From: a virus
Taxonomy: Duplodnaviria; Caudoviricetes
Length of the DNA: 64,000 nucleotides
Virus record (IMG/VR): IMGVR_UViG_3300037070_003657
Span: 225-64,224 of that record
Reading direction: 5' to 3' (one strand)
Shown piece by piece: positions 26,187-64,000 of the stretch. The notes below the pieces were generated by a model that made no database searches, was not told the DNA's origin, and worked only from the letters and a program-made list of their open reading frames with translations. How positions within the stretch are numbered: position 1 is the first letter of the stretch; each line of letters begins with the position of its first letter. Both the position numbers and the translations under genes were made by a program.

Positions 26187-26671
26187 TGCACCTCGAACTC
26201 ATCGCCACCGAGGTCCACGACGAGGTGCTGTTCGTGCCCGGTGGAGAGATCAGCCGGTGGGTCTACGGCGTCGCCAGCGAACTGCACTTCTACACGCTGA
26301 ACGAGGCCCCCATGAACAAGCGGCCGAACAAGACCAGCAACTCCCCGCCACCGGGCCACCTCATCTCCATGCTCAACAGCGACGTGACCCAGGTGGGCAA
26401 GGTCTTCGACATCGTGGAGCGCTCCCGTGCCTCCTACTCGCGCTACGTCATCGAGGGCACCGGCACCATCTACGCCCGCAGTCCTGACCGCAAGGGCTTC
26501 GCCACCGCAGGTGAGGGCGGCGGTGCCATGTACCTGCCCGCCAACCCCGGCTACGGCCGAGGGCGGTGGCGGCAGCGCGTCCGTGGCCAGAGCGCGAACA
26601 ACTTCCTGGGCAGGGCCTACGACCTCACAGCCAGGACACACCCGGCCTTGAAGGGCATCTCGATGGAGTGA
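26186..26671 (+). CDS. HK97 gp10-like neck protein
   Basis: YSRYVIEGTG...VRGQSANNFL motif. Confidence 0.65.
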   Translation: MHLELIATEVHDEVLFVPGGEISRWVYGVASELHFYTLNEAPMNKRPNKTSNSPPPGHLISMLNSDVTQVGKVFDIVERSRASYSRYVIEGTGTIYARSPDRKGFATAGEGGGAMYLPANPGYGRGRWRQRVRGQSANNFLGRAYDLTARTHPALKGISME

Positions 26672-26673
26672 CG

Positions 26674-26687
26674 TTTATCCGGATAAA
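26674..26687. repeat. TTTATCCGGATAAA palindrome (extends to 20 bp, 26671-26690)
   Basis: ACGTTTATCCGGATAAACGT immediately after the stop codon. Confidence 0.95.
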
Positions 26688-26778
26688 CGTGACTCCCCCA
26701 ACACGCTGAGAGTAGATCGCCGGCACTCGCACTGCCTATCCTCTGTGAGGACAGTTACCACCCCCACCGAGGAGAACC

Positions 26779-50321: not shown

Positions 50322-50474
50322 TAGCCACCACCTCTGGCTCGTTGCCCCCGGCCGACTCGTCATCGGTGCGGGGGCTTTCATCTGTCTGAACTTGGGACCT
50401 CGAATCTACCTCCGGGTGTGGGCCAGGTCCATAGCCCGCTACCCTTGACATTCAGTGGTTGCTCCACTCGGCAC

Positions 50475-50514
50475 GGATGGCCGGTCCCTTACCTGCATGG
50501 GGGACCGGCCATCC
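50475..50514. terminator. 14-bp hairpin with 12-nt loop
   Basis: GGATGGCCGGTCCC-ttacctgcatgg-GGGACCGGCCATCC after the ParB-like gene. Confidence 0.6.
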
Positions 50515-50531
50515 ATCTGTCAAGGCCCTGT

Positions 50532-53478: not shown

Positions 53479-55398
53479 TCAGCCGTTCTCGCAGTTGACG
53501 ATCTCGAAGTCCACGCCGGACACGTCCGGCAGGTCCAGGTCCCGCAGCCTGCGGCGCAGGGCCTCGACGTTGATCGTCTCCTCCGGGTCGTTACCGCAGA
53601 CGCAGACGCTCTGCTCCACGGTCACGTCCTCGACCCGCTCCTCACGCTCCCAGTTGAAGCACACGGTGTACGACGAGGACTCGGTGGCGAGGTTGTTGTC
53701 GAAGTGGGCCTCGATGTCGGAGTCCGGCACTTCGTAGTACGACTCGCCGGTGACCTTGACCTCCACCCAGATGGTCTCGGTGGGCCGCTCGCGCGGGTAC
53801 CCTGCCTCCTCCAGGGTGTCGTCATGACCACAGCCGTAGTCGTAGTCGTGGTCGTCGAGCACCTCCCGCAGCGAGGCGCTCACCCGCTCCAGGTGACGGC
53901 GCATCCGGTCGGTCTCGGCGTGGGCGCCGTCGATCAGCCGCTGCATCCGCTGCTCGACCTCACCCACAGCGTCGGTGATCCGCGCCAGGACCTCGGTCTC
54001 CTGCTCGTCGGGCGTCAGCACCCGCTCGGTGTACTCGGGGTTCACCCAGTAGCCGAACAGGTCGTTGCCCAGGTGGTCGCGCAGGTGCTCGGGGATGAAC
54101 GGGCGCATGTCGCCGTCGTCCCAGAACCCCCAGTCCAGGCCGTCGAAGGTGTCACGGCCACCGAAGAACAGACCTCCGGTGCCGTCACCCCGACCCGTGT
54201 CGACGTAGGCCACCGGCGGACGGGTGTCCATGTAGTCGCCGGACGGCGGGTCGGTCCCCTCAGTGGTGTAACTCCGCTTCGGCAGGGACTCCAGCCACTC
54301 GGCCACCGGGTCCACCAGCGTGAGGAAGCGGGCCGGGACCCAGTACCCCCACATCCCGACCGTCTCCAGCGGCAGGTGGAACTCCGCCTGGCGCTGGACC
54401 GTCACGTCCCACAGCCCCACGTCACGGCAGGTCTGCCCCTCGATGGGCAGGATGCCGACCCAGTCCTCGTTCCTCGACGAGCCCACGTTCGGCAGGTGCA
54501 TCACCGTGAGGCCGGTGTTGTGGAAGGCGCGGCTGATCCGGGTGTTGTGGACCCGGTACTGCGGCTGGCTGTTGAACCACTCCGTCTGCCTGGCCTGCGC
54601 AGCCTCACGCTCAGCGATCTCCTCCTCCGAGGGTGCGATCTGGGTGTCCCGCACCCACTGCCCGCGCATCCCGACCAGGTCGGCCGGGACCTCGTAGGTC
54701 CCACAGTGCTCGGCCTCGACGATGAAGCCACCGGTGTCCACCCCCTCGGGTGCCACCATGAAGTGGGTGTACGACCCGGCGTTCCTCACCGGCGCACAGC
54801 GGAACTCCACGATCTCCTCGTCCCCGAACCACGACCGCTGGTATTCGCCGTGCATGGCGACGGTCGGCTCACGGGAGATGCGGAGGAGGGGCAGCGACCA
54901 GAGCAGCGCCTCCTGCCCGGTCAACTGCTCGACGTGCGTGCTCCGGAAGAACCGGAACCAGCACCCGATGAGACCGCCGGGGATGCCGTACTGCCGGGCG
55001 AGCGGTGCGGTCACCTCACGGAACGAGGCGTGTCGCTCCTGCCTGACGAAGCAGACGTACGTCTCGTCGTACCCGTCGAGGCTGGTGCGCATCTCGGGCG
55101 TCACGCCGCCGAACACCTCGCCCCTCAGGGCGCGCGCCCACGTCGAGCGGGTGGGCACGTCGAGCCAGTCCTCGGTGAACCGGAACTTGGGCAGGTCGGC
55201 CCAGGTCATGTCGTCCTTGGTGATGACCTGCACCCGGTCCGCTGCCAGCGGTGCGGTGAAGGTGGCGGCGGTGGCGAACAGCGAGTTGTAGGAGAACGAG
55301 CCGTTGTCGTGCTTGACCCACGTCTGGTGAGGTCGGTCGTCGAGAGTGACACGGATGCGCGAGCCGGTGGCCAGCGCTTCCAGTTCGGATACCTGCAT
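53479..55398 (-). CDS. large multi-module hypothetical protein
   Basis: 639 aa; recurring LP.(Y/F)R...G..G.W(V/F) units; SD AAGGA. Confidence 0.8.
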   Translation of the reverse strand: MQVSELEALATGSRIRVTLDDRPHQTWVKHDNGSFSYNSLFATAATFTAPLAADRVQVITKDDMTWADLPKFRFTEDWLDVPTRSTWARALRGEVFGGVTPEMRTSLDGYDETYVCFVRQERHASFREVTAPLARQYGIPGGLIGCWFRFFRSTHVEQLTGQEALLWSLPLLRISREPTVAMHGEYQRSWFGDEEIVEFRCAPVRNAGSYTHFMVAPEGVDTGGFIVEAEHCGTYEVPADLVGMRGQWVRDTQIAPSEEEIAEREAAQARQTEWFNSQPQYRVHNTRISRAFHNTGLTVMHLPNVGSSRNEDWVGILPIEGQTCRDVGLWDVTVQRQAEFHLPLETVGMWGYWVPARFLTLVDPVAEWLESLPKRSYTTEGTDPPSGDYMDTRPPVAYVDTGRGDGTGGLFFGGRDTFDGLDWGFWDDGDMRPFIPEHLRDHLGNDLFGYWVNPEYTERVLTPDEQETEVLARITDAVGEVEQRMQRLIDGAHAETDRMRRHLERVSASLREVLDDHDYDYGCGHDDTLEEAGYPRERPTETIWVEVKVTGESYYEVPDSDIEAHFDNNLATESSSYTVCFNWEREERVEDVTVEQSVCVCGNDPEETINVEALRRRLRDLDLPDVSGVDFEIVNCENG

Positions 55399-55417
55399 GG
55401 TTGATCCTTCCGTTGGG

Positions 55418-55438: not shown

Positions 55439-56650
55439 TCAGAGGAGGTCGTCGAGAGTGACGGTGCCGCCCGGACCCTGGCTGGGCTCGGCACCGGGCA
55501 CGCCCGGAATCTCCATGATGTGCAGCGGCCAGCCGTGGTCGAGCGTGGCCTGGGTGCTCATCGCTGCATGGGTGTTGATGAGCGAGGCGTGCCACCCGTT
55601 GCTGTGCTTGTAGAGGTGGCCGTTGCCAGACATCGCCGCTTCCCGACCTCCGGTACCCAGGTGGGTGCCGAGGGGCAGGGCCTCCAGCAGGGTGCGACCG
55701 GCGTCACCGGTGGGCACCTCGATCCACATCGGCTGGCTGCCGTCGTGGACCAGGATGTCCTGGCTGCCGGACGAGTAGTGGCCCGTGTTGGGGCCGCACA
55801 GGTAGTCGGTGCCAGCCCTGTTCTGACTGGCGTGGTTGTTGTCGACCCGGACGGTCCAGTTCCAGCCACCACCGGTCCCGTCCCACCGGAAGATGCTGCC
55901 GAGGGGACTGCCGTGCCGCTGGTCCGGCGTGGTCCGCTGGCCGATGGTCAGCCCGGACGCAGGGGTGCCACCGTCCGGTGCCGCCGTCGCCTGGGTCACC
56001 GGTGCCGTGACGCGGGTGATGTTGGCGTCGATCCTCATCGACCCCACCATCCGCTCGAACGCACCGCACCAGGACTGGTTGGACTTGGCGCGCACGCCCG
56101 CCTCCCACACCCGGACCTTCAGCGCACGGATGCGCTCACGGTCCTCCTCGGTGGGAGTGGGGTAGGGACCGTCCACCCTGGCGAACCGGGCGCTACGCAG
56201 GCCACCGAACAGTGGTCGCCAGTCGGGGGCGAACGCCCCGAAGTGGTCCCAGTCCGTGCGCACCCCGACCGTGAGCACACGGTCACCCGGTGGGCGCAGG
56301 AGCACGTCGCTGTTGTAGACCCACATGCCCGGCTCCGCCTCGCCCTCGAACCAGCAGTCGAAGCCCTGGAGCAGGTCGTGGACAGGCCCAGCGTCGACAC
56401 CGTGGTCCCGCTGGAACCCACGGGCCATGATGCACAGCCGCTGACGGAACTCGTCGAAGGTCTCCCGCCTCCGGACCAGTGGGTTGTCGGCCACCTCCAC
56501 CTCGTAGCCGGTGAACGACTGTGCTGCGAAGCCGTCACCGACCAGGGTCTGGATCATGCCCTCGTCGTTGATGAAGTAGGTGCGGTCGAACGTGGTGCCG
56601 GGTGGCAGGGGGTAGATGTCCTCCACTCGGCGCAGGTTGATGGTCGTCAT
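55439..56650 (-). CDS. hypothetical protein with repeated (L)P.G(T/S) modules
   Basis: 403 aa; LPPGT, RPPGD, SPLGS, LPLGT. Confidence 0.75.
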   Translation of the reverse strand: MTTINLRRVEDIYPLPPGTTFDRTYFINDEGMIQTLVGDGFAAQSFTGYEVEVADNPLVRRRETFDEFRQRLCIMARGFQRDHGVDAGPVHDLLQGFDCWFEGEAEPGMWVYNSDVLLRPPGDRVLTVGVRTDWDHFGAFAPDWRPLFGGLRSARFARVDGPYPTPTEEDRERIRALKVRVWEAGVRAKSNQSWCGAFERMVGSMRIDANITRVTAPVTQATAAPDGGTPASGLTIGQRTTPDQRHGSPLGSIFRWDGTGGGWNWTVRVDNNHASQNRAGTDYLCGPNTGHYSSGSQDILVHDGSQPMWIEVPTGDAGRTLLEALPLGTHLGTGGREAAMSGNGHLYKHSNGWHASLINTHAAMSTQATLDHGWPLHIMEIPGVPGAEPSQGPGGTVTLDDLL

Positions 56651-56832
56651 CGTTGTTCCCTTCTCTGGATTCGTTTCCGGTTGGGGTCGACGGCGAGGCG
56701 TGCCTCAGCGTCGGCCATTGCGAGGGTGTGTGCGCACCGGCGACAGGTCACCGGTGTTGGGATCGTGCTGCTTGCGCCCATGTAGGGCACACCGCAGGCA
56801 GCACGACCTTTGACCGAGAGGTGGACGAGCAT
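56647..56832 (-). CDS. H-CG-CxxC zinc-finger protein
   Basis: VHL....RAACG...VTCRRC. Confidence 0.65.
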   Translation of the reverse strand: MLVHLSVKGRAACGVPYMGASSTIPTPVTCRRCAHTLAMADAEARLAVDPNRKRIQRREQR

Positions 56833-57044
56833 CAGCCACCACCGATCCATCGGTTGAGTTCGTCACGCATGGCGGTGACCTCGGCCCAGAACTCCTCGTC
56901 ACCCATGTCGGGTGCGAGGGCGTTGGTCCGGTCGATGAAGGGCATGACGTTCTCCTCGTGCCACCTCTGCCACGTCTCCGCTCGGGTGGCCACCGCCTCC
57001 TCGACCTGCTTCTCCTGGCCGGGGAAGGCGATCACCTTGCCCAT
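56832..57044 (-). CDS. hypothetical protein
   Basis: MGKVIAFPG, TGATG-coupled. Confidence 0.65.
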   Translation of the reverse strand: MGKVIAFPGQEKQVEEAVATRAETWQRWHEENVMPFIDRTNALAPDMGDEEFWAEVTAMRDELNRWIGGG

Positions 57045-57253
57045 CACTCCGGCACCTTGTTCAGGTTGCACGGCAGGCCCCAGGTGTTGCCGCGCAGGTT
57101 GGCGGGTCGAGTGGCCAGCGTCATGGTGCCGTCGCCGTAGGTGGTGACGAGGAACTCGACCCCGTCCTGCATGGCCACGTGCAGCGCCACGATCCTGTCC
57201 CGCTCAGCCCTGCACGCCGAGCAGAACTGCGGGTCCACGTTGTCGTGCTTCAT
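57044..57253 (-). CDS. hypothetical protein
   Basis: coupled; LATR......TWG.P. Confidence 0.6.
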   Translation of the reverse strand: MKHDNVDPQFCSACRAERDRIVALHVAMQDGVEFLVTTYGDGTMTLATRPANLRGNTWGLPCNLNKVPE

Positions 57254-57405
57254 GACTTGCCCTCCTCGTACCAGTTGAGCCGCCACTGCACGGTGGTCGG
57301 GCAGCGACGGCAGTCCACCTTGGCCTTGTCCGTCGTCATCGACACCCGCACGTCGGCCAGTCCGCAGGCCGGGCGGTAGCCGGGCCTGCCGTAGTGGGTC
57401 CTCAT
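57250..57405 (-). CDS. H-CG-CxxC zinc-finger protein
   Basis: THY.....RPACG...VDCRRC. Confidence 0.65.
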   Translation of the reverse strand: MRTHYGRPGYRPACGLADVRVSMTTDKAKVDCRRCPTTVQWRLNWYEEGKS

Positions 57406-57563
57406 GACTCGCTCCTGTCGATGGAGTTGAGCACCATCCACAGCGCGAACGCGGCAGCGACGCACAGGTAGATCGCCTGGCCCGTGTCGAAGTACAGCCA
57501 CAGGTCGTAGCCGAAGACGACTGCCATCGCCAGGTTGATGAAGACGTTGGCCATGTGGCTCAT
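57402..57563 (-). CDS. small membrane protein
   Basis: two TM segments. Confidence 0.6.
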   Translation of the reverse strand: MSHMANVFINLAMAVVFGYDLWLYFDTGQAIYLCVAAAFALWMVLNSIDRSES

Positions 57564-57734
57564 CGGGTGAACACCTCCATCCACTCCCGCACGGCGGGGT
57601 CGATGCGCATGTCCGGCGTGAGCACGCCGTCGAACGGCGGCTCGCTCTCGATGACAGGAGCGGTGACCGTGGTGATGACCTCGGTCTTGGTTGTCGTCAT
57701 GACTGATCCTTTCTGGTTGGGTTGGTTGACCCAG

Positions 57735-57748
57735 TTTATCCGGATAAA
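57735..57748. repeat. TTTATCCGGATAAA palindrome
   Basis: intergenic. Confidence 0.95.
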
Positions 57749-57757
57749 GCGGGTTTG

Positions 57758-57961
57758 TCAGGAGACGTTGACCCACCGCATGGCGGTCTGCAAGAGGTGG
57801 TCGTAGTCGCCAGACATGGACTCCTCCTTGTACTTCTCGACCTCTTTGCGGGAGACGCCGTTGTCGAGGAGCGCTCTGCTCACCGCGCCCATGACTGCGA
57901 AGGCGTTGCCGTCCTGACCGCTCAGTTGGACGTTGACGCGGGGGTACCTGATGTCGCTCAT
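57758..57961 (-). CDS. small hypothetical protein (L.G.DGNAFA.MG...SGDYD.LL type)
   Basis: motif I recognise from phage/plasmid small proteins; SD AAGGAG. Confidence 0.75.
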   Translation of the reverse strand: MSDIRYPRVNVQLSGQDGNAFAVMGAVSRALLDNGVSRKEVEKYKEESMSGDYDHLLQTAMRWVNVS

Positions 57962-58057
57962 GTGATGCTCCTTCGGTTGATGGGTTGGTTGGTCACCGGC
58001 AGCGCACGTGGCACAGCCGGAACAGCAGGCCGACGATCAGGTCAGCGACTCGGTCGA

Positions 58058-58543
58058 TCACCACATCACCTCCTCCGCGATGCGCCACTCCTGAGCGGGA
58101 GTGAGGTAGGCAGCGACGGCGATGCGCAGCGCCAGGTTGTGGTCAGTTGACTGACCGACCTCGGCGAACACGTCCGGCTCCTCACACAGCGCCACCGTCC
58201 ACACCCCATCGGGGCTGACGCAGTCCCAGTAGAGGCGGTCCCGGCACAGCAGGTGCGCCACCGTCTGGAGTGGTCCGATGTAGACGAACTCACCCAGGTC
58301 AGCGCGGTACTGGACCACCGGTGACTCGACCACCACCCCCTCCTCACGGCGGATGCGGACCTGTGCCTGGAGGGAGGGACCTGTCGGCACCCGGTAGGAC
58401 AGGCAGCGCAGGCAGTCCACCCTGTCGTGGTTGCGGGTCATCCGTTGACCACCCCACTGACCGCACATGGCACGGCCAGCCACCTGGTAGTGGGTCTTGG
58501 CCTTGGTCCGTCGCCCGTCGATGACGTTGGGCGTGGCCCTCAT
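58058..58543 (-). CDS. protein with N-terminal H-CG-CxxC zinc finger
   Basis: THY....RAMCG...VDCLRC. Confidence 0.65.
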   Translation of the reverse strand: MRATPNVIDGRRTKAKTHYQVAGRAMCGQWGGQRMTRNHDRVDCLRCLSYRVPTGPSLQAQVRIRREEGVVVESPVVQYRADLGEFVYIGPLQTVAHLLCRDRLYWDCVSPDGVWTVALCEEPDVFAEVGQSTDHNLALRIAVAAYLTPAQEWRIAEEVMW

Positions 58544-58881
58544 GAGGCCACCAACCAGACAGCCCGGTCGGGCGTGAGTGGGGCGTAGGTCCCCGGACCC
58601 AGGGTCCAGGGACGGCAGGTCCCGCACTCGAAGGGACGGTGCTTCAACAGGTACCCCTCGGGTACCCGCAGACCGAGGACGTTGGACCCGTAGTCGGCAC
58701 CGCACCTGTCGGTTGACCACTGCCCCGGCCAGACGGCACGCCACTCCCCCGTGGTGGAGCAGCGCACGTGGATGGGCACGTCGCTGCCGCCCAGCACGTG
58801 CCGGTAGATCACGTCCGTCCCGCTGGCTGACGCTGGCGCCGCCACCCCCAGCGAGAGGAGGACGGCCAGCACCCACCTCAT
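58540..58881 (-). CDS. small secreted Cys-containing protein
   Basis: signal peptide MRWVLAVLLSLGVAAPASA|. Confidence 0.7.
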   Translation of the reverse strand: MRWVLAVLLSLGVAAPASASGTDVIYRHVLGGSDVPIHVRCSTTGEWRAVWPGQWSTDRCGADYGSNVLGLRVPEGYLLKHRPFECGTCRPWTLGPGTYAPLTPDRAVWLVAS

Positions 58882-59108
58882 GACTCACCGCCCTGCCCGA
58901 TCATGAAGATGACGACCAGCGTCATGCACCGAGGGCACTCCAGCAGGGACACGTGCAGGTCCATCCTGCTCAGGTCCCCGCCGAGGCGCTTCCCGCACAG
59001 GGCGAGGTCCGACTCGCTGCCCTGGATGTGCCACGCACCGCCGCCCCTTGACGAGACGGCGTGGGCCACGTAGTCGCCGTAGATGGTGGCCCTGGCCCAG
59101 CCCTTCAC
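58878..59108 (-). CDS. H-CG-CxxC zinc-finger protein
   Basis: AH/WH...ALCG...ECPRC. Confidence 0.6.
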   Translation of the reverse strand: MKGWARATIYGDYVAHAVSSRGGGAWHIQGSESDLALCGKRLGGDLSRMDLHVSLLECPRCMTLVVIFMIGQGGES

Positions 59109-59155
59109 AGCCGACCCTTCCTCGACCAGTGCCCGATCATGAAGATGACGACCAG
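58894..59155. repeat. 26-bp exact direct repeat
   Basis: TGCCCGATCATGAAGATGACGACCAG at 58894-58919 and 59130-59155. Confidence 0.9.
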
Positions 59156-59269
59156 GTTGACGGGCAGGATGATGACCAACGCCAGCCATGCCTCGTTGGC
59201 CACACACAGGCCGAGGTTGAAGCCCAGCCAGATCATCGCAATGCCGAGCAGCCAGGCTGCGGTGCTCAT
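59105..59269 (-). CDS. small membrane protein
   Basis: 54 aa, two TM segments, coupled overlaps. Confidence 0.6.
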   Translation of the reverse strand: MSTAAWLLGIAMIWLGFNLGLCVANEAWLALVIILPVNLVVIFMIGHWSRKGRL

Positions 59270-59463
59270 GACCCGCTCCGGCTGGCCGCGTTGCCACCGG
59301 TGGCGAGCAGCAACATGCTGACCCCCCAGAAGATGAGGTCGTTGGTGTCCTCCGCCTCGTGCGCCCCGAGGAACTGGATCAGGGAGAAGAAGAAGGCGAG
59401 CAGGATGAGGACCGTGACGAGCACCGGCAGCCAGTCGAGGATGGAGTCGCTCCGCCTGCTCAT
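59266..59463 (-). CDS. small membrane protein
   Basis: two TM segments. Confidence 0.6.
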   Translation of the reverse strand: MSRRSDSILDWLPVLVTVLILLAFFFSLIQFLGAHEAEDTNDLIFWGVSMLLLATGGNAASRSGS

Positions 59464-59645
59464 GACGGACTCCAGACCATGCTGAAGGTGAAGCGCAGAC
59501 CGTCCTCCTGGCCGCAGCACTTGCACCAGTTGGTGGTCATCGACCCCTGGCTGAGCCAGGCACCGGGGTACTGGCTGAGAACCTGCTTGCGGGCTGGCTC
59601 CCACGCAGTCGGGCTCGCCATGACGACGTGCACCAGCGTCTTCAT
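59460..59645 (-). CDS. hypothetical protein
   Basis: coupled; CKCCG. Confidence 0.55.
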   Translation of the reverse strand: MKTLVHVVMASPTAWEPARKQVLSQYPGAWLSQGSMTTNWCKCCGQEDGLRFTFSMVWSPS

Positions 59646-59980
59646 CACAGCCCCTCCTCGGTGGGCTCGGGCGGGGTGGTGTCGGGGAACTGGAGCAGGT
59701 CGGCCGGGATGCCGGTGGCCTCGCTGAACCGGGCGATCATCTCCGCCTTGAACGCCTCGAACTGCGCGTTGATGAACTCGATGGTGGCCTGGTCCCTCGG
59801 ACCACCCAGGTCCAGGTCGGCCAGCACCTTGGCCAGCACAGGAGCCTGCACCCCGTGCTGGAGGGCGACCTGGCTGAGCGCGTCCACCTTCTCCTGCTCC
59901 CGCAGTTCGAGCGCGCTGATGAGCGCGTCGAGTGACTCCTCGACGGCCCACGTTCCTACGGTCTCTCTGATGGTGCTCAT
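59645..59980 (-). CDS. hypothetical protein
   Basis: SD GAGGAG; begins MSTIRETV, similar to MTNITETV of 52937-53272 including ALE.RE. Confidence 0.7.
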   Translation of the reverse strand: MSTIRETVGTWAVEESLDALISALELREQEKVDALSQVALQHGVQAPVLAKVLADLDLGGPRDQATIEFINAQFEAFKAEMIARFSEATGIPADLLQFPDTTPPEPTEEGL

Positions 59981-59992
59981 TGGTTGACTCCT

Positions 59993-60376
59993 CTACTTGT
60001 TGGTGGTGGCGGACTTGGCGAGGGCGGTGGCGAACTCGTCGCTCATCCGGTGGACGACCCTGATCTGCTGGCGCAGGCCGACCCTCGCCTGCTCGGGCAG
60101 GTGGGTGGCGCGTTCGAGGATCGCCTCGATCTTGGCGATGGTCATGACCCGCAGGATGGTGGTCTGGCCGACCAGCACCACGACCGGGACGTTGAGGTCG
60201 GTGGCCTGGTAGACGCCCCGGCAGTAGTGGATGACGTGCTCGCTGTCGGTCCGTCCGTCGAACGGGGTGAGCGAGCGTGCGATCTGCTTGCGCAGCACGT
60301 CGAAGTGACGGTTGCCGTGGGTCGGTGCGTCCCACATCGGGTGACGCTCGACCTGGATGTTGAGTGTGTCCTGCAT
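59993..60376 (-). CDS. hypothetical protein
   Basis: SD AAAGGA after a palindrome. Confidence 0.65.
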   Translation of the reverse strand: MQDTLNIQVERHPMWDAPTHGNRHFDVLRKQIARSLTPFDGRTDSEHVIHYCRGVYQATDLNVPVVVLVGQTTILRVMTIAKIEAILERATHLPEQARVGLRQQIRVVHRMSDEFATALAKSATTNK

Positions 60377-60394
60377 GGCTGATCCTTTCGTGGG

Positions 60395-60408
60395 TTTATC
60401 CGGATAAA
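60395..60408. repeat. TTTATCCGGATAAA palindrome
   Basis: intergenic. Confidence 0.95.
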
Positions 60409-60413
60409 GCAGG

Positions 60414-60953
60414 TCAGTACAGGTTGATGACGTTGCGCACGTCGACCGGACCGGGCATCCCCCGGAGCAGGTCGACGCGGTAGTTGACTGACATGACCGA
60501 GCGGGTCGAGTCGTTGTGGGTCAGGCCCATGACGTGACCCAACTCGTGGGCCAGGATGGAGCGGGTGGTGTACCGCCCGAACCCCAGGCACCAGTCGTTG
60601 AGGTAGATGTCGGCCCCGTCGTAGAGCACGACCCCGTCGACGATCCGCACGTTGACCTCGGGTCGCTCCCACTTGGTCCACCCGCAGGCACCGTCCGTGC
60701 CCGGTGAGTAGTAGCGATGGATGATGACGCCGGTGCACGTCGAGTCGCCCATCGTCAGGTGGACGGCTGACTGGCTGGCGTTCCAGACCTCGACCATCCG
60801 CTGCACTTTCCAGCCTGAGCCGGTGACGGGGAAGTCGGTGCGGACACAGACCTCGGTCGAGGACAGCCGGAACGGGGTGCCGTCATCGGCTGACGCTGGC
60901 GGTGCGAGGCACACCACCGTGAGTGCCGCGAGTGCGGCGAGTGACTTGCGCAT
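60414..60953 (-). CDS. secreted matrixin-like (metzincin) zinc metalloprotease
   Basis: signal peptide ending PPASA|; HELGHVMGLTH zinc motif and SVM Met-turn. Confidence 0.9.
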   Translation of the reverse strand: MRKSLAALAALTVVCLAPPASADDGTPFRLSSTEVCVRTDFPVTGSGWKVQRMVEVWNASQSAVHLTMGDSTCTGVIIHRYYSPGTDGACGWTKWERPEVNVRIVDGVVLYDGADIYLNDWCLGFGRYTTRSILAHELGHVMGLTHNDSTRSVMSVNYRVDLLRGMPGPVDVRNVINLY

Positions 60954-60978
60954 GGTCCCTCCTTAGGACATGGGTGAA

Positions 60979-61030
60979 CCCACCCCCCGGTGCGGAGTGA
61001 GGGAGTCACGGCCACGCACCGGGAGGTGGG
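60979..61030 (-). ncRNA. 16-bp stem-loop with anti-RBS loop (candidate antisense RNA element)
   Basis: minus-strand CCCACCUCCCGGUGCG-uggccGUGACUCCCUCACUC-CGCACCGGGGGGUGGG; loop complementary to the leaders at 62876-62890 and 63523-63538. Confidence 0.5.
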
Positions 61031-61042
61031 AGTTGAGAGGCA

Positions 61043-61588
61043 CTAGTCCAGGATGATGGTGTCCATGATCCCGAAGTAGCGCAGCACGTCAGCGATCTGG
61101 CTGAACGTGAGGTTGTACCTGTCGTTGAGCACCGAGCACCCGAGCCTGGGTTCGAGGTGCTCGTTGGTCGAGATCGGCTGACCACCGTGCAGGGCCACGT
61201 TGTTCAGTTCGCCCTGGCTCATGGCGTACTCGTCGGGCAGGTCGACGAAGATGTCACTCTGCTCCAGGTCGTGCTCGACCCCGAGGTGGGCGAGCAACTC
61301 CGGCGGTGCCATCTCCGCCCACTGGTCGTAGTACCCGACCTCGTCATAGACGGTCTCACCCTCCAGGGTCGGGCTGTCCCAGTCCGAGGTGTCCTCCTCG
61401 TTGATCGACAGGGACAGGTGCGGCACCAGCGTGCACGCCTGGCCCATGCAGCAGTAGCCGATGGGCTTGCCGGTCTCCTGGCCGATGGTGACCAGACGAC
61501 CGGTCCCCTGCGGCAGGGTGGTGGTGGCCAGGCTGTCCACCCACTCGTCGAAGTGGTCGTTGCCGGTGCCGTACATGATGGCTCTCAT
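61043..61588 (-). CDS. hypothetical protein (QG.G.L...YCC.G...LND...F.QIAD type)
   Basis: recurrent phage motif set; ATGA-coupled. Confidence 0.75.
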   Translation of the reverse strand: MRAIMYGTGNDHFDEWVDSLATTTLPQGTGRLVTIGQETGKPIGYCCMGQACTLVPHLSLSINEEDTSDWDSPTLEGETVYDEVGYYDQWAEMAPPELLAHLGVEHDLEQSDIFVDLPDEYAMSQGELNNVALHGGQPISTNEHLEPRLGCSVLNDRYNLTFSQIADVLRYFGIMDTIILD

Positions 61589-61682
61589 GCGTTGACCTCC
61601 GCTCCGCAGCACTGGCACGGCGTACCGGTGCCGTCGTCGGCGTGGTCACCGGCAGCGCACGGAGGGCAGTTGACCGGGGCGC

Positions 61683-61871
61683 TCACAGCGCACCACGCAG
61701 GGTGAGGAACTCGCTGCCGTCGATGACCTGGGACTGGAGCACCAGGTCGAACTCCGCCTCCGCCGCACGCCGCTCGTCCTCGGTCATCGGCTGACGCTGA
61801 CCGACCGACGACTCACGACGGCGCTCGCTCGTCCGGTACTTGGCCTTGTTCTTCTTGCTCGGGATGGTCAT
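61683..61871 (-). CDS. hypothetical protein
   Basis: SD GAGGA after a palindrome. Confidence 0.6.
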   Translation of the reverse strand: MTIPSKKNKAKYRTSERRRESSVGQRQPMTEDERRAAEAEFDLVLQSQVIDGSEFLTLRGAL

Positions 61872-61886
61872 GCTGCTGATCCTCTC

Positions 61887-61900
61887 TTTATCCGGATAAA
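61887..61900. repeat. TTTATCCGGATAAA palindrome
   Basis: intergenic. Confidence 0.95.
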
Positions 61901-61902
61901 CG

Positions 61903-62166
61903 TCAGGCGTTGACGGGGACGGGGACGGCGACGTGACGGGCCACGTCCCAGGTCATGACCTGGTCGGTGATGTGGCTGACGAAGTCGGGGGTGAGGCGGA
62001 CCCGGATGGACCGGGGCAGGCAGCCGAAGTAGGCGACGAACATGTAGCGGGTCTGCTTCATGCCGTCGTGGGCGTTGGCGTGGTACTCGCGCCACTCGTC
62101 GAGCCCCTCCTTGACCTCGGTCTCCAAGGCGGTGAACTCCACGGTGCGGTCGTCGATGCGCAGCAT
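61903..62166 (-). CDS. hypothetical protein
   Basis: SD AAAGGA. Confidence 0.65.
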   Translation of the reverse strand: MLRIDDRTVEFTALETEVKEGLDEWREYHANAHDGMKQTRYMFVAYFGCLPRSIRVRLTPDFVSHITDQVMTWDVARHVAVPVPVNA

Positions 62167-62206
62167 GACGTGATCCTTTCTGTGCTGAGGTGTGACGGTC
62201 ACAACC

Positions 62207-62248
62207 TCACCGCCAGCCCCGCACCATGAGGCACGGGGCTGACGGTGA
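62207..62248 (-). terminator. 15-bp hairpin (G.U pairs on minus strand)
   Basis: TCACCGCCAGCCCCG-caccatgaggca-CGGGGCTGACGGTGA. Confidence 0.6.
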
Positions 62249-62256
62249 AGCGGTGC

Positions 62257-62874
62257 TCAGCGGGCGAGCAGGAAGTGCGCGACGTGGTGCGGCAGGTACC
62301 ACAGGTTGGGTGACCTGCCGGTGCCGGTGTAGAACGACTGGCCCATGCCGTTGCCACGGTGACGGGCATCCCAGACGCAGTCCTTGCTGTCCTCGTTGGC
62401 GCACTTCTCGTACGCCCCGTGAGGTGAGGTCAGGTACAGCATGGAGTGGGCGATGTGGTGAGGCAGCCGCCAGATGCGGCCACTCTCACCGATGAACACG
62501 ATGCCGTCAGCACCGGTGGCGTGCGGCTCGTAGACGCAGTTGCGGGGCATCGGCTCCTGCCCGCACGGCAGGTACTCGGTGCGGGGCTGAGCGGCGTGCG
62601 CCTTGCCGATCACAGCCAGCGCCAGGAACACGCCGACCACGATGATGCTGAGCAGCGATCCGAGGACAGCGCAGCCGGTGGCCACCGTGCCCCGCTCACT
62701 CCTCACGTGACGCCCGGTCTCGACGCAGCGGTAGGTCTGGCTGGCCCACCGGTTGGAGAGGATGATCGCTGACTTGCGGATGTAGTGACTCGACGAGCGG
62801 TACCGAGCCGACAGGATGGCGAACGCCAAGGCGTCGAACCTGGTCGGGTCGTTGTCGCAGAGGTTGGTACTCAT
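62257..62874 (-). CDS. membrane-anchored/exported protein with duplicated C..E....CV(W/Y)...LPHH.AH domain
   Basis: internal TM and AHA|A site; two repeat units. Confidence 0.7.
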   Translation of the reverse strand: MSTNLCDNDPTRFDALAFAILSARYRSSSHYIRKSAIILSNRWASQTYRCVETGRHVRSERGTVATGCAVLGSLLSIIVVGVFLALAVIGKAHAAQPRTEYLPCGQEPMPRNCVYEPHATGADGIVFIGESGRIWRLPHHIAHSMLYLTSPHGAYEKCANEDSKDCVWDARHRGNGMGQSFYTGTGRSPNLWYLPHHVAHFLLAR

Positions 62875-62893
62875 GGTGACTCCCTCACTCATG

Positions 62894-62907
62894 TTTATCC
62901 GGATAAA
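62894..62907. repeat. TTTATCCGGATAAA palindrome
   Basis: upstream of the GAGTGAGGGAGTCAC leader. Confidence 0.95.
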
Positions 62908-62985
62908 CCGGACGGGGTGACTGACTGTCACTCCGCGACACAAGCCCGGCATCGGAGGATGACGGGCTTGCATCGTGGTGCGGTG

Positions 62986-63216
62986 TCAGCGCGTGACCAC
63001 AGCGTTGTGGTCGGGCGTGCCGTTGTGCAGGTTGTTCGCCAGGGTGCGCGGCTCGGCGTGGATGTACGCGCCACCGTCACCGGCCAGCGAGAGGAAGCGG
63101 GTGCCGATGCCGCAGACCTCGCACACCTTGACCGTGCTGGGCAGGTTGCCCGTCGAGCGACGGGTCAGGTCAACCTCGACGGGCTGACGGGCGGCATCCC
63201 GGATGACGCCCATCAC
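62986..63216 (-). CDS. small Zn-binding hypothetical protein
   Basis: CEVCG...YIH...DH.A. Confidence 0.55.
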   Translation of the reverse strand: MMGVIRDAARQPVEVDLTRRSTGNLPSTVKVCEVCGIGTRFLSLAGDGGAYIHAEPRTLANNLHNGTPDHNAVVTR

Positions 63217-63313
63217 CGACGCCCGCCCAGGTTGGACGGGTCACGCCAGCAGAGGACGACGAGCCCGGTGAAGTGGGCCACGATGATCGCCACCGTGACC
63301 CACTCGCTGGCGG

Positions 63314-63520
63314 TCACGACTCCACCGGCATGTTCAGGACGAACGAGCCGAGCAACTCGTCGATGGTGTAGCCGTTGCGGAACATGCTGACCACGGTCTG
63401 CGCGTTCTCCGCGTTCCACCCCATGCCCGCCGCCTCGAACGCCTCGCGGGCCAGCGTTCGGTAGGCGATGAACTCCGGGCTGAGCCCGGCGTTGGGGACC
63501 TGCTTGGTTGTTGCGGCCAT
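63314..63520 (-). CDS. first gene of leftward early operon, hypothetical
   Basis: SD GAGGGAG; first ORF after the promoter. Confidence 0.7.
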   Translation of the reverse strand: MAATTKQVPNAGLSPEFIAYRTLAREAFEAAGMGWNAENAQTVVSMFRNGYTIDELLGSFVLNMPVES

Positions 63521-63550
63521 GACGTGACTCCCTCACTCATGATGGTTGGC

Positions 63551-63589
63551 TTTATCCGGATAAACGTTGACCGGGTTTATCCGGATAAA
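63551..63589. repeat. two tandem TTTATCCGGATAAA palindromes
   Basis: 63551-63564 and 63576-63589, in the 5' leader of the early operon. Confidence 0.95.
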
Positions 63590-63641
63590 CGCCGGTCGGC
63601 TGACCGGCTGACGGTGGGCAGACTTCTCCCACTCAGAACCC

Positions 63642-63671
63642 ATTCTATCCCAACCTGACACACCTAGTCAA
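63642..63671 (-). promoter_or_regulatory. strong SigA-like leftward (early) promoter
   Basis: minus strand TTGACT-18 bp-TAGAAT. Confidence 0.8.
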
Positions 63672-64000
63672 CTAGATCACTAGACAATGACGGGCTCGGT
63701 TGACCCCTCGGTTGACTGGCCCAGCGCGTCCCGTTCGGTGACTCGTTGACTGACTGACTGACTGGCTCACCCCGGTTGCCAGCGCGCGAGTCTCGCCCGC
63801 CTCGGCCAGCGTTCGGTAAACCGGAGCTGCCCCTCCGGACACAGCAATGCCCCGGTCCCTCCCGCACGGGGCGAGGGACCGGGGCAACCGGGTCCGGACA
63901 TGCCGATGCCCCGCACGGCGTACCGTGCGGGGCATCGGGTCTAGCGGGTTAGGAGGCCTTGGCCTCCGGCGCCACCGGCGCGCCGTACTCGCTCGTGAGG

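Follow-up and report, generated by a model that had tools for sequence, protein, structure and literature searches.

Why would a strong intergenic hairpin in the early region of a phage genome carry, in its loop, the exact antisense of two ribosome-binding sites lying 1.9 and 2.5 kb away? The locus that raises this question belongs to IMGVR_UViG_3300037070_003657, a 64,224-bp IMG/VR virus record rated complete, of which bases 225-64224 (64,000 nt) constitute the window analyzed here. The phage was found in soil metagenomes, and because its record has a G+C content of ~66% and its portal protein is ~35% identical to the portals of Arthrobacter, Gordonia and Mycobacterium phages, the host is probably an actinobacterium. 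The hairpin (hairpin A; minus strand, 60979-61030) lies between the stop codon (61043) of a gene for a 181-aa protein and the ribosome site of a gene for a 179-aa metallopeptidase (60953-60414), and the two complementary sites are the leaders of the first early gene (68 aa) and of a gene for a 205-aa membrane protein. From the sequence and from predicted folds, we tentatively propose that hairpin A is an anti-ribosome-site RNA element within the leftward early polycistronic message, an answer in which our confidence falls somewhat short of even.

Hairpin A consists of a G+C-rich lower stem of 16 bp, with arms at 60979-60994 and 61015-61030 (16 nt each, 94% complementary), and 20 nt between them, as had been described in an earlier inspection of the DNA letters (the sequence-only reading). 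The sole exception in the stem is a C.A mismatch on the plus strand that becomes a G.U pair on the minus strand only, which also agrees with that description. The region is predicted to fold at -41.6 kcal/mol (z -3.6) on the minus strand and at -40.6 kcal/mol (z -3.1) on the plus strand; these energies are nearly equal, and the strand preference of hairpin A is therefore worth only ~1 kcal/mol. On the minus strand the 20-nt loop is itself predicted to refold as GUGA-CUCCC-UCAC, with a 4-bp upper stem (60997-61000 with 61006-61009) and an apical pentaloop (CUCCC, 61001-61005), so that the model is one of a hairpin in two tiers whose apical pentaloop is C-rich. Within the loop, the anti-leader segment occupies 60995-61010 and reads (C)GUGACUCCCUCACUC on the minus strand; on the plus strand the loop holds GAGTGAGGGAGTCAC at 60995-61009. 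A small plus-strand gene using the Shine-Dalgarno (SD) sequence of this loop was ruled out, no ATG, GTG or TTG being within reach, and no copies of the stem sequence above chance were found elsewhere in the window.

Exact reverse complements of GAGTGAGGGAGTCAC are present at 62876-62890 (15 nt) and at 63524-63538, the latter extended to 16 nt by starting at 63523. The central claim of the sequence-only reading, that the loop is the exact antisense of two SD-containing leaders, is thereby confirmed. Loop and leaders are complementary while lying on the same (minus) strand. When both strands of the 64,224-bp record were searched for the 15-mer, exactly three copies at ≤1 mismatch were retrieved, the loop included, and a reversed-pattern control gave 0. 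Read on the minus strand, both reverse-complement copies are GAGUGAGGGAGUCAC. They overlap the sequence GAGGGAG, which stands 5 nt before ATG 62874 and 7 nt before ATG 63520, and they stop 1 nt (205-aa gene) and 4 nt (first early gene) ahead of the AUG.

The two leaders have 18 nt in common (CAUGAGUGAGGGAGUCAC), followed by a second CAUG, and are predicted to form small hairpins of the type CAUG(A)GUGA-GGGAG-UCAC(G U)CAUG, in which the start codon pairs with the CAUG upstream of it; the predicted energies are -9.7 and -8.0 kcal/mol. The structured start of the first early gene (minus strand, 63518-63541; CAUGA-GUGA-GGGAG-UCAC-G-UCAUG) contains the loop target 63523-63538, and that of the membrane-protein gene (minus strand, 62872-62893; CAUG-A-GUGA-GGGAG-UCAC-CAUG) contains the loop target 62876-62890. 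Predicted folds thus agree with the suggestion that both partners form mini-hairpins with complementary pentaloops, CUCCC in hairpin A and GGGAG in the leaders, each on a 4-bp stem.

Both leaders precede frames that look like genes. The first early gene extends on the minus strand from 63520 to 63314 and the membrane-protein gene from 62874 to 62257, and third-position GC is coding-like in the frames of both ATG 62874 (0.90) and ATG 63520 (0.96). The first leader also contains an out-of-frame AUG at 63540; we rejected it as the true start of the first gene, as it opens an out-of-frame, Arg/Ser/Pro-rich frame. Most minus-strand genes of this phage have leaders of the AGGAGCAACC or AAGGATCA type. 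Ribosome sites of the GGGAG type are rare (13 candidate starts listed, with the two loop targets among them), and the loop therefore addresses a small set of starts.

A degenerate leader copy (12/15) is found within the 205-aa frame itself, at 62683-62701 on the minus strand, one base ahead of an in-frame GTG, and ranks fifth in duplex energy with the loop. Most homologues of the 205-aa protein are 135-137 aa long and start with the signal peptide that follows this GTG. To judge from these homologues, the 205-aa gene may have been lengthened at its N terminus by 63 residues and provided with a new leader, or it may have an internal start.

Pairing energies and the level of chance matches

The perfect duplexes between loop and leaders have computed energies of -31.6 kcal/mol for the first gene (16 nt) and -29.2 kcal/mol for the 205-aa gene (15 nt). 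Opening the loop costs 5.45 kcal/mol, and opening the leaders 7.86 (first) and 7.57 kcal/mol (second). A check of the hairpin-leader interaction, as the sequence-only reading had proposed, hence gives a favorable outcome once both partners have been opened, with net computed energies of about -18.3 (first leader) and -16.2 kcal/mol (second). Across the whole minus strand, divided into 30-nt windows, the loop has its best partner in the first leader (-36.7 kcal/mol), the 5' GGCC of the loop pairing there in addition with a GGCC past the start codon; the leader of the 205-aa gene is in the third-best window (-30.3 kcal/mol).

How readily would such a match arise by accident? In the window, 49 maximal exact inverted pairs of at least 15 nt remain after removal of the family of a 14-bp palindrome, TTTATCCGGATAAA, that is described below, and 0.99% of all 20-nt windows contain an exact inverted copy of at least 15 nt. 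Allowing ≤3 mismatches, the motif is found 5 times as compared to 4.5 expected in shuffled sequence, which is chance level. A bare 15-nt inverted match is common in this genome and not special. Its placement here is unusual: one arm fills a loop that belongs to one of the strongest hairpins, and its partners lie over two ribosome-binding sites. Start-like positions are touched by five of the 49 inverted pairs, and two of these five are the loop-leader pairs. As a rough estimate, the chance of a loop-to-start match is 0.0005-0.001 per loop, or 0.005-0.01 for the approximately ten strong hairpins with large loops.

The numerous unrelated inverted pairs of this G+C-rich genome, together with the chance-level count of looser matches, are what one would expect if an SD-like loop had matched SD-containing leaders by simple coincidence. 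Against this stand the estimate, after multiple testing, of ~0.005-0.01 for a loop and a start to match over at least 15 nt, and the presence of a recognizable copy in the loop of a related phage as well (see below), and we consider coincidence very improbable. From the rarity of the loop-to-start placement and the copy in the relative, we infer that the three copies owe their relationship to descent, to selection, or to both.

Conservation of the hairpin in related DNA

Four relatives of the 181-aa protein were retrieved from the protein database. Among the homologues identified, P0002, on a contig of 13,166 bp, is 68% identical to the 181-aa protein, and others are encoded on contigs of 7,596 bp (P0007) and 9,603 bp (P0011 and P0012). 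A metagenome scan reached three DNA relatives, all of them metagenome contigs of 1.1-1.5 kb (L024, L025 and L026). Contig L024 (1,068 bp) has the same layout as the window: a homologue of the 181-aa protein (40%), a hairpin, a ribosome site, and the peptidase gene, whose product is 78% identical across 118 residues. In the stem of its hairpin 15/15 pairs are kept, with a U-A pair swapped for C-G and one base pair lost from both arms; the wobble is at a different stem position from that of the window and is again G.U on the gene-sense strand. An RNAalifold comparison of the two hairpins counts three both-side changes, of which two are due to the one-pair offset. The loop is again 20 nt long. 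Its apical CUCCC and a 10-nt core, UGACUCCCUC, are identical to those of hairpin A and its 5' part differs, and the upper stem is kept with one extra U per side (AGUUGA...UCUACU). These comparisons support the conservation of hairpin A as an RNA structure in one relative.

The same alignment bears on the alternative offered by the sequence-only reading, namely that GTGA-N5-TCAC is a DNA operator and that the three copies are sites at which one phage or host protein reads the motif in either orientation. The motif is near-palindromic, further GTGAC...GTCAC palindromes occur in early intergenic spacers (62192-62202 and 62927-62941), and the phage clearly does use one genome-wide DNA palindrome, the 16-copy TTTATCCGGATAAA. 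However, GTGA-N3-6-TCAC is not enriched across the genome (9 found as compared to 7.7 expected), the half-site spacing varies from 1 to 7 nt, and in L024 the half-sites (GTTGA/TCTAC) have lost their symmetry while the RNA upper stem survives. Moreover, an operator would have no reason to occupy the loop of a 16-bp inverted repeat with compensatory pairing changes. The operator explanation gained nothing from the genome-wide counts and appears improbable to us.

The other two contigs, L025 and L026, reach from the end of the homologue of the 205-aa gene as far as the homologue of the 181-aa gene, and keep the palindrome ahead of the homologue of a 62-aa gene and a GUGA...UCAC hairpin ahead of the homologue of an 87-aa gene. 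The leaders of relatives could not be read from N-terminally extended 205-aa gene calls, the homologues being called from a downstream start.

Elsewhere, relatives of this region were scarce. Searches with 60000-64000 and with 60300-64000, in near and distant modes, found no DNA relatives among isolated phages. A tblastn search gave no match with the 181-aa and peptidase proteins, and with the 205-aa protein only matches of 21-25% coverage in 6 records. Within IMG/VR, the 181-aa protein, its alignment, and two patterns of the hairpin or of a ribosome site were all without match; the peptidase alignment retrieved two unrelated phages (L027 and L028), both without the hairpin, and a tandem-palindrome pattern retrieved one phage of low G+C content that is also unrelated (L029). 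With the exact 15-mer, 10 single hits were obtained there, all unrelated and none with the palindrome, and the 16-mer palindrome likewise gave 10 single hits. Among GTDB genomes, neither the protein alignment nor the hairpin pattern had a match.

Four of 13 soil sequencing runs, three of DNA and one of RNA, were compared with the window. Contigs from the DNA runs are identical to it over the hairpin (60400-61100, 60715-61069 and 60926-61076) and over both leaders (62846-63568), and the fragments from these three runs show no sequence variants or joints at the hairpin, the leaders or the repeats. They speak against one further explanation, in which the inverted 15-16-bp copies are crossover sites for flipping a 1.9- or 2.5-kb early segment. 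The geometry, inverted repeats around a block of genes, is all that favors such a switch. The contigs of all three DNA runs cross each repeat in the reference orientation with no joint, although contigs can miss rare forms; there is no recombinase among the 20 proteins scanned, which cover part of the genome; and after inversion no start codon would follow the leader. We give an inversion switch next to no credence.

In the RNA run, one 197-nt contig is identical to the window at 62429-62625, inside the 205-aa gene, its ends and strand not being shown, and one additional 40-nt piece is unrelated. This contig is no evidence for a small RNA, and the parts that it leaves uncovered carry no meaning.

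A candidate anti-ribosome-site element in the early message

If hairpin A does act on the two leaders, it might do so as follows. The long, G+C-rich lower stem would resist decay and the small upper stem would display CUCCC, while the ribosome-binding regions of the 68-aa first gene and of the 205-aa membrane-protein gene would display GGGAG and hold their AUG in a stem. A first loop-loop contact between CUCCC and GGGAG would then extend to a duplex of 15-16 bp over the SD sequence, reaching in the first gene beyond the start codon. Such a duplex would block binding of the 30S subunit and may form a substrate for a double-stranded RNase, by which it would perhaps be cleaved. Acting in cis or as a stable decay fragment, the element would lower the expression of both genes once the distal operon has been transcribed or once the hairpin has accumulated as such a fragment. 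The proposal builds on the exact complementarity, the predicted folds and energies, and the conservation of the hairpin in one relative; it presumes that transcription runs through the element, that the element accumulates, that the partners pair in vivo, and that the effect has the direction and timing described.

The stronger form of the proposal adds protein-free timing: a decay-resistant hairpin 2-2.5 kb downstream would kiss and silence two GGGAG-loop ribosome-binding hairpins of its own message, as a self-limiting, RNA-only feedback in an actinobacterial phage operon. We regard this form as possible though unlikely. Such feedback may belong to a broader grammar, in which the early region is punctuated by small GUGA/UCAC hairpins and palindromes. 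Should the pairing be real, it would represent a compact, protein-free shut-off of the first genes of the phage and a case of long-range control within one polycistronic mRNA, in a host of high G+C content, a setting in which little is known of RNA regulation. A small element, it makes a sharp prediction, with two targets and an exact complement. Were it only a structural hairpin with a leftover match, it would be ordinary.

Several observations weigh against control of the leaders by hairpin A. Each transcript would carry a single antisense loop for two targets, the leaders are loaded with ribosomes well ahead of synthesis of the hairpin, and part of the 'loop' is itself predicted to be paired. 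A defined 3' end is not predicted, because no U-tract follows the stem. Random or unrelated G+C-rich windows yield duplex energies of -27 to -32 kcal/mol with the loop. The strand preference of the stem amounts to 1-2 kcal/mol, and that the two wobbles both fall on the sense strand is a 1-in-4 chance. The three related contigs end short of both leaders, so that the comparison covers the hairpin side only. On that side, the 15-nt anti-leader segment differs in L024 by one substitution and one insertion, only the 10-nt core being identical, and neighboring coding DNA is ~85% identical between the window and L024; the segment seems no better conserved than the flanking coding DNA, which provides no special evidence of constraint. 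Of the translational timer envisaged by the sequence-only reading, the exact complementarity, a conserved RNA fold and a favorable predicted pairing are supported, and a stable hairpin RNA, the pairing itself, the shut-off and its timing belong to its hypothetical part.

Alternatively, hairpin A could have a structural role that is purely local, as an attenuator, as a barrier to decay, as a processing site of the RNase III type between cistrons, or as a 5' element of the metallopeptidase gene. It would then not regulate at a distance, the distal match being left over from common descent of short ribosome-site cassettes. In one variant of this explanation, CUCCCUC of the loop pairs with AAGGAGGGA, the ribosome site of the peptidase gene itself. 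Indeed, this site begins 15 nt past the stem of hairpin A, UCCCUC of the loop can pair with its GAGGGA, and both sequences are kept in L024. Strong hairpins that have no anti-leader loops are also present between other early cistrons (62941-62969 and 62195-62260), the loop is not conserved above its surroundings, and in three of the 10 unrelated IMG/VR hits the same 15-mer is an ordinary ribosome-site leader. However, the local pairing comprises 6 bp only, and its best duplex, -16.0 kcal/mol before opening costs of +3.7 and +7.0, is marginal. A local role would also leave unexplained the 8-9 extra bases matched to the two leaders, for which base composition gives an estimate of ~3e-5 per comparison, and although the copy predates the split from L024, the window retains matches of 15/15 and 16/16. 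A purely local role is the main rival of our proposal, conceivable to us if doubtful.

A role as an ordinary terminator found no support. Hairpin A failed a test for intrinsic terminators, having the stem but also a 20-nt loop and a tail, UUCACCCAUG, with no U-tract (L024 has UCUCACCAUG at this position), and a scan of 56000-64000 returned 0 terminator-like sites. In Rfam, the whole window had 0 matches at the gathering score, including to C4 antisense RNA and 6C small RNA (sRNA), and 60300-64000, searched at E up to 1, gave four weak unrelated hits, none of them at 60979-61030.

Several known systems resemble the proposed anti-ribosome-site element in part. In R1 CopA/CopT and ColE1 RNA I/RNA II, the helix is extended after a first loop-loop contact of complementary hairpins. 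Here too, two hairpins have apical loops that match one another (CUCCC/GGGAG, as a prediction only), but in the plasmid systems the antisense RNA comes from the opposite strand of its own target and is fully complementary, whereas here it would come from elsewhere on the same strand and match over 15-16 nt. In the early mRNA of T7 genes 1.1/1.2, a downstream hairpin region pairs with the upstream ribosome-binding region unless it is removed by RNase III; this mRNA and its RNase III site were reportedly treated by Saito and Richardson in 1981, and lambda sib retroregulation is said to have been treated by Schmeissner et al. in 1984. These cases share with hairpin A a downstream hairpin region that would control an upstream cistron in a phage early polycistronic RNA, but they are RNase III processing sites of enterobacterial phages, and their distances and sequences are unrelated.

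The c4 RNA of P1 and P7 is a processed RNA of ~77 nt, the detail of whose loop-target pairing was reportedly given by Citron and Schuster in 1990. Like the element proposed here, c4 of the immI operon is a phage antisense RNA from the same operon and strand as its targets, with short loops that pair with a ribosome-binding region; unlike it, c4 lies upstream of its target, whereas hairpin A is downstream of its two and has no Rfam match. In P1, c4 shares one operon with its targets, and C4 RNA is needed (PMC8198154). In icaR of Staphylococcus aureus, a distal C-rich UCCCCUG pairs with the SD region of its own mRNA, blocks initiation, and creates an RNase III substrate (PMC3868564). Hairpin A similarly presents a distal C-rich motif complementary to an SD region, exact over 15 and 16 nt including GAGGGAG. 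The icaR mRNA, in contrast, is monocistronic and its short motif is in a true 3' untranslated region (3'-UTR), while hairpin A is intergenic in a phage operon, with more genes after it, and would address two cistrons over 15-16 nt. In the 6C sRNA of Actinobacteria, C-rich hairpin loops bind G-rich single-stranded mRNA sites by few G-C pairs with no chaperone (PMC6486639). The likeness lies in a C-rich loop facing a G-rich mRNA site, and in the probable actinobacterial host of the phage; the difference is that 6C is a conserved sRNA with a gene of its own and several C-rich loops, whereas hairpin A is single, inside an mRNA, and without an Rfam match. By analogy, the element would act like the loops of P1 c4, the icaR 3'-UTR or 6C sRNA, yet it is a member of none of these families.

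The early region and its other palindromes and hairpins

Leftward, minus-strand genes span ~40 kb to 63.5 kb of the window and include those for a primase-helicase-like protein, SSB, and a Rad52-like protein. A promoter-like site on the minus strand at 63642-63671 (TTGACT, 18 nt, TAGAAT) has 10/12 consensus matches and was recognized by consensus match only. It is followed on this strand by two TTTATCCGGATAAA palindromes (63551-63564 and 63576-63589) and then by the first leader and the first gene. Of the two genes that flank hairpin A, the 181-aa gene (minus strand, 61043-61588), of unknown function, has its stop 12 nt ahead of the hairpin, and the 179-aa gene (minus strand, 60414-60953), directly downstream, encodes a protein with a lipoprotein-like signal and a zinc-metallopeptidase motif (Peptidase_M10, E 3.4e-07).

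The 14-bp palindrome TTTATCCGGATAAA is present in 16 copies (14 perfect, 2 centre variants) between 9262 and 63589, as compared to 0 expected. Most copies fall in the gap that separates the stop codon of one minus-strand gene from the ribosome site of the next, 2-35 nt ahead of the start, and the palindrome is kept at the same gene junction in relatives (L025 577-590, L026 753-766). The string was not found in the literature searched, and it is probably the operator of an unknown regulator. One copy, at 26665-26696 behind a plus-strand late gene, is enlarged to a 32-bp near-perfect inverted repeat; its right flank carries 10 nt of the anti-leader (CGTGACTCCC), which is within chance (~0.3 expected, an estimate).

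Right after the 205-aa gene, at 62195-62260 on the minus strand, there is a very strong predicted hairpin (-51 kcal/mol, z -8.4), whose 12-nt DNA 'loop' is antisense over 9 nt to the start region of the same gene (62870-62878). A companion idea, that this loop (62222-62233) is antisense to the start codon of the 205-aa gene, was rejected: the 9-nt match is real, but in the minus-strand RNA G.U pairs close the loop down to a UCAU tetraloop, so that it is probably not free to pair. The hairpin that relatives have at this place is unrelated.

The early spacers contain more small hairpins (62935-62975, 62925-62945 and 62190-62202), one of them with a CUCC tetraloop on the sense strand (-26.9 kcal/mol). 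Two early-spacer hairpins are built on GUGAC/GUCAC stems and stand immediately ahead of ribosome sites, and L025 has AGGAGUGA-UGG-UCACUCCU in the matching place (~270-292). Hairpins of the GUGAC/GUCAC type may represent a motif, of RNA or of DNA, that recurs in the early region.

Farther from the early promoter-like site, the 12-nt loop of a 15-bp hairpin at 50473-50515 repeats, on the sense strand, an 11-nt portion of the start of a 671-aa gene (CCAUGCAGGUA, 55390-55400); this copy is in sense and not in antisense. The sequence CCATGCAGG has 6 copies on the minus strand, of which two, 55397 and 60376, are at gene starts. Two perfect hairpins with arms of 14 and 16 bp and short loops occupy 63848-63938, past the early promoter-like site and at the record's right end, and are probably terminators insulating the genome end.

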